Shown here: positions 19,453 to 19,950 of the stretch, piece by piece
How the letters are laid out: the number at the start of each line of letters is the position of its first letter
How positions within the stretch are numbered: position 1 is the first letter of the stretch
Notes under the pieces: generated by a model
Databases searched by the model: none
What the model saw: the letters and a program-made list of their open reading frames with translations, nothing else
Told to the model about the DNA's origin: nothing
DNA from: a virus
Lineage: Duplodnaviria; Heunggongvirae; Uroviricota; Caudoviricetes
Direction: 5' to 3' (one strand)
Virus record (IMG/VR): IMGVR_UViG_2617270992_000014
Length of the DNA stretch: 41,104 nt
Made by a program: the position numbers and the translations under genes

Positions 19453-19803
19453 ATGCCATCACGAATCCCCCGCGCATGCCGTAAGCGAGGTTGCGCAGGC
19501 ACAACAACAGACAGCTCTGGCTACTGCGATAAACATCGGGGTGAAGGCTGGGTGCAGCACCAGCGCGGACTGAGCCGCCACCAGCGTGGCTATGGCTCAA
19601 AATGGACGGTGATTCGAGCCCGTATTCTGAAGCGCGATAAAGGTCTGTGTCAGTTGTGTCTGCGTGTCGGTGTGGTGCGCGAGGCGAAAACTGTCGACCA
19701 CATCATCCCGAAAGCACATGGCGGAACAGATGCAGACAGCAACCTGCAGAGTCTGTGCTGGCCCTGCCACAAAGCGAAAACAGCGCACGAACGAATCAGG
19801 TGA
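19453..19803 (+). CDS. HNH endonuclease (terminase-associated)
   Basis: AAGGAG 6 nt upstream of the ATG at 19453; Cys-rich N-terminus and the HNH core VDHIIPKAHGGTDADSNLQSLCWPCHKAKT. Confidence 0.8.
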   Translation: MPSRIPRACRKRGCAGTTTDSSGYCDKHRGEGWVQHQRGLSRHQRGYGSKWTVIRARILKRDKGLCQLCLRVGVVREAKTVDHIIPKAHGGTDADSNLQSLCWPCHKAKTAHERIR

Positions 19804-19950
19804 TAATTATTCTCACTTGTGGGGAGGGGCGGGTCAAATCCCTGCAACCCTGGCTGTCCGGGACCGCCCGCCAACCCTTCTTCGCATCGCCGCAGGTTCG
19901 AAAACTTTTTTTTGGGAATGCGATCAAACGATTGATAGGTAAAACCGATT

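Follow-up and report, generated by a model that had tools for sequence, protein, structure and literature searches.

Where the ends of a packaged phage chromosome are cut, and by which enzymes, is the question raised by the lysis-terminase junction of IMG/VR virus record IMGVR_UViG_2617270992_000014, the 41,104-bp stretch of DNA analyzed here in full (hereafter the window). The window is a complete lambdoid prophage in which a gene for an HNH endonuclease is followed by a 147-bp gap and then by the genes for the small (TerS) and large (TerL) terminase subunits. An earlier note, made from the sequence without database searches, had proposed this gap as the likeliest place for the cohesive-end site (cos), and homology to the cos sites of phages phiP27, SfI and HK97 supports that proposal. 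The gap very probably holds a cos site of the HK97/phiP27 type, a known kind of site, with predicted ends. Its elements are listed below; a slash or caret within a cut site marks a nick.

19804 to 19950: gap between the HNH gene and terS, 147 bp, with the terS ATG at 19951
19821 to 19839, plus strand: G-box GGGGAGGGGCGGGTCAAAT, conserved left cos element containing GGCGGGTC, at a fixed distance from the nick
19862 to 19864, plus strand: GAC left of the predicted minus-strand nick (between 19864 and 19865; minus strand 5'-CG^GT-3')
19865 to 19874, plus strand: predicted cohesive end CGCCCGCCAA, a 10-nucleotide 3' overhang, with the plus-strand nick predicted between 19874 and 19875
19875 to 19913, plus strand: right flank CCCTTCTTCGCATCGCCGCAGGTTCGAAAACTTTTTTTT, candidate TerS recognition region (cosB-like), ending in a T8 run at 19906-19913

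Location of the predicted cos site

The window site is homologous to cos sites with experimentally determined ends, those of HK97 and SfI, and to the cos feature annotated in the Stx2e phage phiP27. The DNA of phiP27 is 100% identical to window positions 19790-19872, an identity that extends to base 8 of its annotated 10-nucleotide cos-site, CGCCCGCCCC (NC_003356 / AJ298298, misc_feature 21806-21815), which aligns with CGCCCGCCAA at 19865-19874. The virion ends of SfI have been sequenced directly and leave a 10-nucleotide gap, TGCCCGCCCC, reportedly one base off the SfV site (PMC3636060); in the sequences compared here, ST64B and SfV carry TGCCCGCCCC at the same place. The window gap aligns, without insertions or deletions, with this SfI site and with the ends of the HK97 record, which finishes in ...GGGGGGGGGATCAAATC-N-ATGAC CGCCGCCAAA (the last 10 nucleotides) and starts with GTTTGAATTTAACGCTAACCCGATTTTTTTAG. 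For HK97, Chechik et al. placed the cleavage site between positions -1 and +1 (PMC11331095), and the ends are 10-nucleotide 3' overhangs (PMC11331095). Position +1 of the HK97 record corresponds to that cleavage site, with T16, C:G at 21 and A:T at 24-29 all fitting the published numbering (PMC11331095).

Ten phages, including HK97, phiP27, SfI/SfV/ST64B and a Klebsiella phage, were anchored at AC/CGCC and aligned without gaps. The 10-mers of phiP27, SfI/SfV/ST64B and HK97 share columns with window 19865-19874, and a G-rich box ending in (G or A)TCAAA(T or A) lies at an equal distance upstream of the nick in nine of the ten phages, HK97 among them, being shifted by 1 bp in the Klebsiella phage. 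The predicted 3' overhangs of the window phage are CGCCCGCCAA and TTGGCGGGCG. Among relatives with the TerS/TerL lineage of the window, no record starting at cos was found. Literature searches with the 10-mer strings returned only unrelated papers, and a scan of genome contigs for the core 21-mer of the window gave one chance match, in a Verrucomicrobiia metagenome-assembled genome without similarity to the window.

With HK97, the window shares the order HNH-cos-terS-terL, homologous TerL and HNH proteins, and a cos layout consisting of a G-run with ATCAAAT, about 24 bp, GAC/CGCC..., a 10-nucleotide 3' overhang and an A/T tract downstream of the cut. It differs in the 10-mer (CGCCGCCAAA in HK97 vs CGCCCGCCAA), in the position of the T-run (+24..+30 in HK97 vs +32..+39), in a P27-family TerS without detectable similarity to gp1, and in an extra N-terminal zinc ribbon of the HNH protein that is absent from gp74. 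In comparison with phiP27, the HNH proteins are 98% identical and the DNA is fully identical from the 3' end of the HNH gene, across the G-box, as far as base 8 of the 10-mer, whereas its final two bases and the whole right side differ (19% identity in TerS, 38% in TerL), and no stx genes lie in the corresponding region of the window. Shigella phages SfV and SfI and Salmonella phage ST64B have the same G-box and spacing as the window but an AC/TG left nick and a phiP27-type right flank (…TTTTTATACCCGCGAAAAA) with a different TerS lineage. Lambda cos (cosQ-cosN-cosB) follows the same three-part logic of an upstream element, a nick site and a downstream small-terminase/bending region, likewise at the lysis-terminase junction; however, it has 12-nucleotide 5' overhangs, a Nu1/gpA terminase, no HNH protein and no sequence similarity to the window, and the labels cosQ-like and cosB-like are used here as analogies only. 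Judged by its sequence, the feature is an ordinary HK97/phiP27-type HNH-cos-terminase module, and such modules are common: among 5426 complete E. coli genomes, 958 contain a match to it, with identity reaching 98.0%.

Several points weigh against this placement. The termini rest on homology, both for the window phage and for any phage of its TerS/TerL lineage, and the phiP27 cos-site is a feature as annotated in GenBank. The window 10-mer differs at 4 of 10 positions from CGCCGCCTGA, the majority allele used with the same terminase, so that an error of one or two bases is conceivable in the nick positions, which are predicted by alignment. The TerS of the window has no sequence relationship with HK97 gp1, and the analogy between TerS and its site is therefore positional only. 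Furthermore, HK97 gp74 and lactococcal HrdP have been reported to be non-specific nucleases in vitro, and the left nick departs from AC/CG in SfV, SfI and ST64B.

A practical gain of the predicted site is in annotation, as the induced phage genome would be written from 19875 around to 19874.

A possible two-part signal of G-box and AC/CG border

In a set of close relatives, defined by a TerS at least 98% identical to that of the window and comprising 80 loci with 49 distinct sequences, AC/CGCC (window 19863-19868) is invariant in all 49, and it is kept across the cos family. IMG/VR was scanned for exact matches to GGGTCAAA-N{20,30}-GACCGCC, and the following counts refer to the 80 loci listed by that scan. 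The spacer is exactly 23 bp, as in the window, in 38 loci, compared with about 7 expected if spacers were uniform. At this spacing, an HNH homologue lies immediately upstream in 33 of the 38, with a terminase downstream too in 27 of those. The HNH junction is present in 5 of 12 loci with a 24-bp spacer and in 1 of 25 with spacers of 20, 21 or 25-30 bp. TerL identity among the positive loci ranges from 21% to 100%, and their TerS proteins belong to several lineages, some without detectable similarity to the TerS of the window. Within the 41-kb window, the composite motif is unique.

In PhiR49_2 (L093, PV340570.1, 17743-18954), an unannotated HNH homologue at 17743-18093, with 85% amino acid identity, is separated from the G-box by an insertion of about 0.75 kb that carries two minus-strand open reading frames (ORFs) and ends just before the box. 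The G-box defines where the conserved cos region begins on its left side, and a cosQ-like role for the box is possible by analogy. In the same record, a 49-residue "hypothetical protein" has been called across the cos region.

The G-box and the AC/CG border also occur in Geobacillus phages. The record of Geobacillus virus E2 (GVE2; L214/L215, NC_009552) is split inside the HNH gene, and right after the HNH stop codon it reads GGGTAGGGGCGGTC-N25-GGGAC/CGGCGGGGGC, overlapping the annotated TerS start. The relatives L217-L231 keep this layout, in which a G-box and GGGAC/CGG follow just after the HNH gene; one of them, L231, reads GGGGAGGGGCGGGTCAAAAAG...GGGAC/CGCG. The cos architecture of the E. 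coli type thus seems to extend to Firmicute phages. A G-box, 23 bp and AC/CG located 3' of an HNH gene form a cheap signature that appears to locate cos in many prophages without virion-end sequencing. This signature and its match to the nicking specificity of HNH enzymes, described below, form the one part that specialists might find of interest.

HNH endonuclease and terminase subunits

The proteins encoded on either side of the gap are those of a cos-type packaging system:

19453 to 19803, plus strand: HNH endonuclease gene, 116 amino acids, ATG at 19453 to TGA at 19803 (matches to PF01844, phrog_144, 5H0M and gp74)
19951 to 20433, plus strand: small terminase subunit, P27 family (PF05119, TIGR01558, phrog_83)
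20433 to 22190, plus strand: large terminase subunit (ATPase and nuclease), HK97-like (PF03354, PF20441, 6Z6D)

The HNH gene is preceded by AAGGAG at 19441-19446, seven bases ahead of its ATG, and lies directly upstream of the predicted cos and terS-terL. Its product matches PF01844 (5.7e-16, 58.8 bits; cutoff 21.4) and phrog_144 (2.7e-42), is 98% identical in amino acid sequence to phiP27 L34, and is homologous to HK97 gp74 (4e-10). The closest solved structure is that of the GVE2 HNH enzyme (PDB 5H0M; N.phiE2), found with phmmer at 1e-12 over residues 1-114, which has the same architecture of a zinc ribbon plus an HNH domain. In the translation, the zinc ribbon reads C9-x4-C14 / C25-x2-H28 and the HNH core C66-x2-C69, D82-H83, N97 and C102-x2-C105-H106; all catalytic residues and zinc ligands, including two CxxC pairs, are intact. 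In HK97, terminase cleavage at cos needs or is stimulated by gp74, which binds TerL (PMC9410871, PMC13595911). By analogy, the window HNH protein is presumed to be a packaging factor, a role supported by its homology and position, and the same would apply to homologous genes labelled "homing endonuclease" in related records.

TerS is a P27-family protein, with matches to PF05119 (1.7e-25, 89.7 bits; cutoff 24.7), TIGR01558 (3.6e-31, 107.5 bits; cutoff 45.6) and phrog_83. It is 19% identical to phiP27 TerS and 56% identical to TerS of Klebsiella phage 1 LV-2017. Neither HK97 gp1 (no detectable similarity) nor the solved structures (no usable similarity) provide a template for it, and HK97 TerS-DNA contacts are therefore not transferable residue by residue. 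TerL is of the HK97 type: it contains the ATPase and nuclease domains PF03354 and PF20441, matches HK97 TerL (PDB 6Z6D) at 1.1e-35 over residues 122-559, and is 38% identical to phiP27 TerL. These coordinates and profile matches bear out the placement, in the earlier note, of an HNH gene immediately ahead of the small and large terminase genes. Its comparison with HK97 likewise holds, given the gp74 and 6Z6D matches and the established role of the HNH protein in HK97 cos cleavage (PMC9410871, PMC13595911).

The right flank of the site probably concerns TerS. Positions 19885-19911 (CATCGCCGCAGGTTCGAAAACTTTTTT) are invariant in 49 of the 49 distinct sequences of close relatives, with a T-run of 6 to 9 bases. 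Across phages, the right flank varies with the TerS lineage, while the G-box and AC/CG are constant. HK97 TerS binds positions +15 to +29 downstream of the cut and needs the A/T tract there (PMC11331095), and we infer from this analogy that the right flank with its T-run serves TerS recognition.

Proposed division of the two nicks between HNH and TerL

A model with one nick made by each enzyme, HNH and TerL, is already in the literature (PMC11331095). Xu & Gupta reported that the HNH enzymes of GVE2 and phage gamma (N.phiGamma) nick CG^GT, equivalent to AC^CG on the other strand, and that several others nick NG^GT (PMC3592412 Table 1); these sites were measured on cos-adjacent HNH enzymes without being related to cos (PMC3592412). 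In the window, the left border of the predicted overhang reads, on the minus strand, 5'-GGCGGGCG^GTCCCGG-3', which is exactly the nick context of GVE2 and gamma. HK97, phiP27 and the Klebsiella and metagenomic relatives all retain the AC/CG border, and it is found 3' of the HNH gene in GVE2 and its relatives as well. GVE2 and gamma are, however, Firmicute phages, and the nicking specificity of the window HNH protein is predicted only. The agreement supports, but does not prove, that the HNH protein is the minus-strand nickase; the apparent lack of specificity of gp74 and HrdP in vitro and the AC/TG of SfV-type sites speak against this assignment. The agreement also gives a way to test directly why such phages should need a second nuclease.

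The proposed course of events would begin with transcription of the late, Q-dependent operon, which extends across the lysis genes, HNH, cos, terS and terL. TerS would then bind the conserved right flank (approximately 19885-19913, including the T-run) on concatemeric DNA and position the HK97-like TerL and the HNH protein over GAC/CGCCCGCCAA/CCC. Staggered nicks, in the minus strand between 19864 and 19865 (5'-CG^GT-3') and in the plus strand between 19874 and 19875, would generate 10-nucleotide 3' cohesive ends. The likeliest division of labor would assign the minus-strand cut to HNH and that in the plus strand to the TerL nuclease. The G-box at 19821-19839, at its fixed distance upstream, may act like lambda cosQ at termination.

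An unlikely but substantial alternative keeps cos as predicted and lets TerL make both nicks, with HNH merely stimulating TerL, for example by metal delivery or allostery. A route for this has been described, in which TerL cuts once, the DNA advances, and the TerL nuclease cuts again (PMC11331095). It would agree with the finding that gp74 only enhances cleavage in vitro and is dispensable at high terminase concentration (PMC9410871, PMC13595911), as well as with the non-specific cutting by gp74 and HrdP alone. On the other hand, gp74 does not function without the metal-binding His of its HNH motif (PMC9410871, PMC13595911), and the catalytic residues of the window HNH protein are all intact. 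Moreover, AC/CG is conserved from E. coli to Geobacillus phages and equals the specificity of the GVE2, gamma and other cos-adjacent HNH nickases.

Mosaic structure and 10-mer alleles

The window is a mosaic joined inside cos. DNA homology to phiP27 ends at 19872/19873, within the 10-mer, and to the right of the joint the window resembles phi467, PhiR49_2, mEp235, Fraca and Klebsiella phages. Two 10-mer alleles accompany the TerS shared by the close relatives: CGCCGCCTGA in 67 of the 80 loci and CGCCCGCCAA in the other 13. The CGCCCGCCAA allele is linked to a phiP27-like HNH gene in 12 of its 13 loci, and recombinants between HNH type and core allele are few.

The position of the joint raises the possibility of a non-functional hybrid, in which recombination inside the 10-mer combined a phiP27-type left half with a foreign right half and terminase, leaving the prophage with a cos of its own that cannot be cut. 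The disparity between a 98% phiP27-like HNH protein and the TerS and TerL identities of 19% and 38% fits such an origin, as does the different 10-mer found in most loci with this terminase (67 vs 13). This explanation is nevertheless improbable. The same allele recurs in 13 of 80 loci on several flank backgrounds, including one with a different HNH tail (L044), and is therefore not a one-off lesion; AC/CGCC, the G-box spacing and the right block are intact, and the late gene set is full. From this distribution, the CGCCCGCCAA allele is recurrent and probably functional, with an overhang sequence that tolerates change.

A broader proposal can be made tentatively, being plausible but somewhat likelier to fail than to hold in full. 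HNH-dependent cos sites across phyla would share a G-box (GGGGNGGGGNGGGTCAAA) about 23 bp before AC/CG, independently of the TerS family; AC/CG would represent the nicking specificity of HNH, so that HNH rather than TerL sets one chromosome end, and TerS together with TerL the other. The overhang would be largely free to vary, as suggested by the coexistence of two alleles with one terminase and by the recombination joint inside the 10-mer.

Escherichia phage Evi (L251, LR597642.1, 1118-1545) has a different junction, in which the HNH gene is truncated after ...KAHGG and followed, in inverted orientation, by a copy of the terS 5' part that extends to the T-run. Neither the G-box nor the AC/CGCC core is present there; the terS region is 97% identical to the window at the DNA level, and the record added no defined ends. 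Evi represents either a packaging-defective element that has been rearranged or an artefact of assembly close to the genome ends.

Readings of the gap unrelated to a cos site

Headful (pac) packaging, with no cutting site in the gap, is highly improbable: nothing specific speaks for it, whereas TerL groups with the cos TerL of HK97, the gap has direct sequence homology to three defined cos sites, and the HNH-terS-terL synteny is typical of cos phages. Equally remote is a free-standing homing endonuclease next to a hairpin, terminator or small RNA with no part in packaging, as the "homing endonuclease" label in records ON4705xx and ON4706xx and the GC-rich gap with its T-run might suggest, because the gap has no terminator-like site, no fold stability beyond shuffles and no Rfam or tRNA match, and the gene always adjoins cos and terminase even across differing TerS/TerL lineages.

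The composition of the gap is as the earlier note had described it, 147 bp and GC-rich with a T-run; GC content has its local maximum of 70% over 19820-19899, and the run is T8 at 19906-19913. The imperfect inverted symmetry that it pointed out stands only in part. Both 8-mers are present, GGCGGGTC at 19828-19835 (one base left of the position implied earlier) and GACCGCCC at 19862-19869, but as an inverted repeat or hairpin they do not rise above chance. They are complementary at 6 of 8 positions; a pair at least as good appeared in 500 of 500 shuffles of the gap, and a pair matching at 7 of 8 in 69%. A repeat search of the window did not pick up the pair, and the fold stability of the gap was no better than that of shuffled sequences (z = +0.62). 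The inverted-repeat reading is rejected, since neither complementarity nor folding exceeds chance. Both 8-mers coincide with the two most conserved blocks of the cos family, the G-box at 19821-19839 and the nick site GAC/CGCC; the earlier reader chose the right bases for the wrong statistical reason, and the symmetry itself is no evidence.

Other candidate elements in the gap were also rejected. There is no terminator-like site that would make the T-run part of an intrinsic terminator, and the run more likely belongs to the TerS-side recognition region. Promoter matches were limited to two weak ones on the minus strand, in line with chance expectation. A tRNA- or tmRNA-like reading of GGGTCAAATCCC / GCCCGCCA gave no match with ARAGORN and only sub-threshold noise, outside the gap, with Rfam. 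An IHF-like sequence, GATCAAACGATTG (19922-19934), agrees with 12 of 13 consensus positions, but its ATCAA half is not kept in close relatives, and no IHF site is claimed. Additionally, a direct repeat, CCCTGCAACCCT / CCCGCCAACCCT, at 19840-19851 and 19867-19878, with its copies 27 bp apart, flanks the nick region, its second copy covering the right part of the 10-mer.

Gene order and neighboring genes

The prophage begins with an integrase gene on the minus strand (1-1119), and it has genes for a RecE-like exonuclease, RusA and antiterminator Q (15067-15762). After Q come two holins, an M15 endolysin and the HNH/gap region, in which the HNH gene, the 147-bp gap, terS and terL are followed by genes for the portal, an S78 protease, the HK97-fold capsid protein and the tail. 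Profile matches indicate a full late gene set.

A second HNH-like nuclease (DUF968 / HNHc_6, 352 amino acids) is encoded at 13652-14710 in the nin region, upstream of RusA and Q, and is unrelated to the packaging HNH protein. Just 5' of the packaging HNH gene, a 108-residue ORF at 19044-19370 matches phrog_1935 (function unknown) and has no Pfam match; it has a conserved counterpart in phiP27, L33, and accompanies the HNH gene. A cargo segment (16043-17215) between Q and the holins contains a minus-strand ORF of 156 amino acids at 16043-16513, without a Pfam match, and a 141-residue ORF at 16790-17215 with a partial TerB (tellurite resistance) domain. This segment occupies the position where phiP27 has stx2e.
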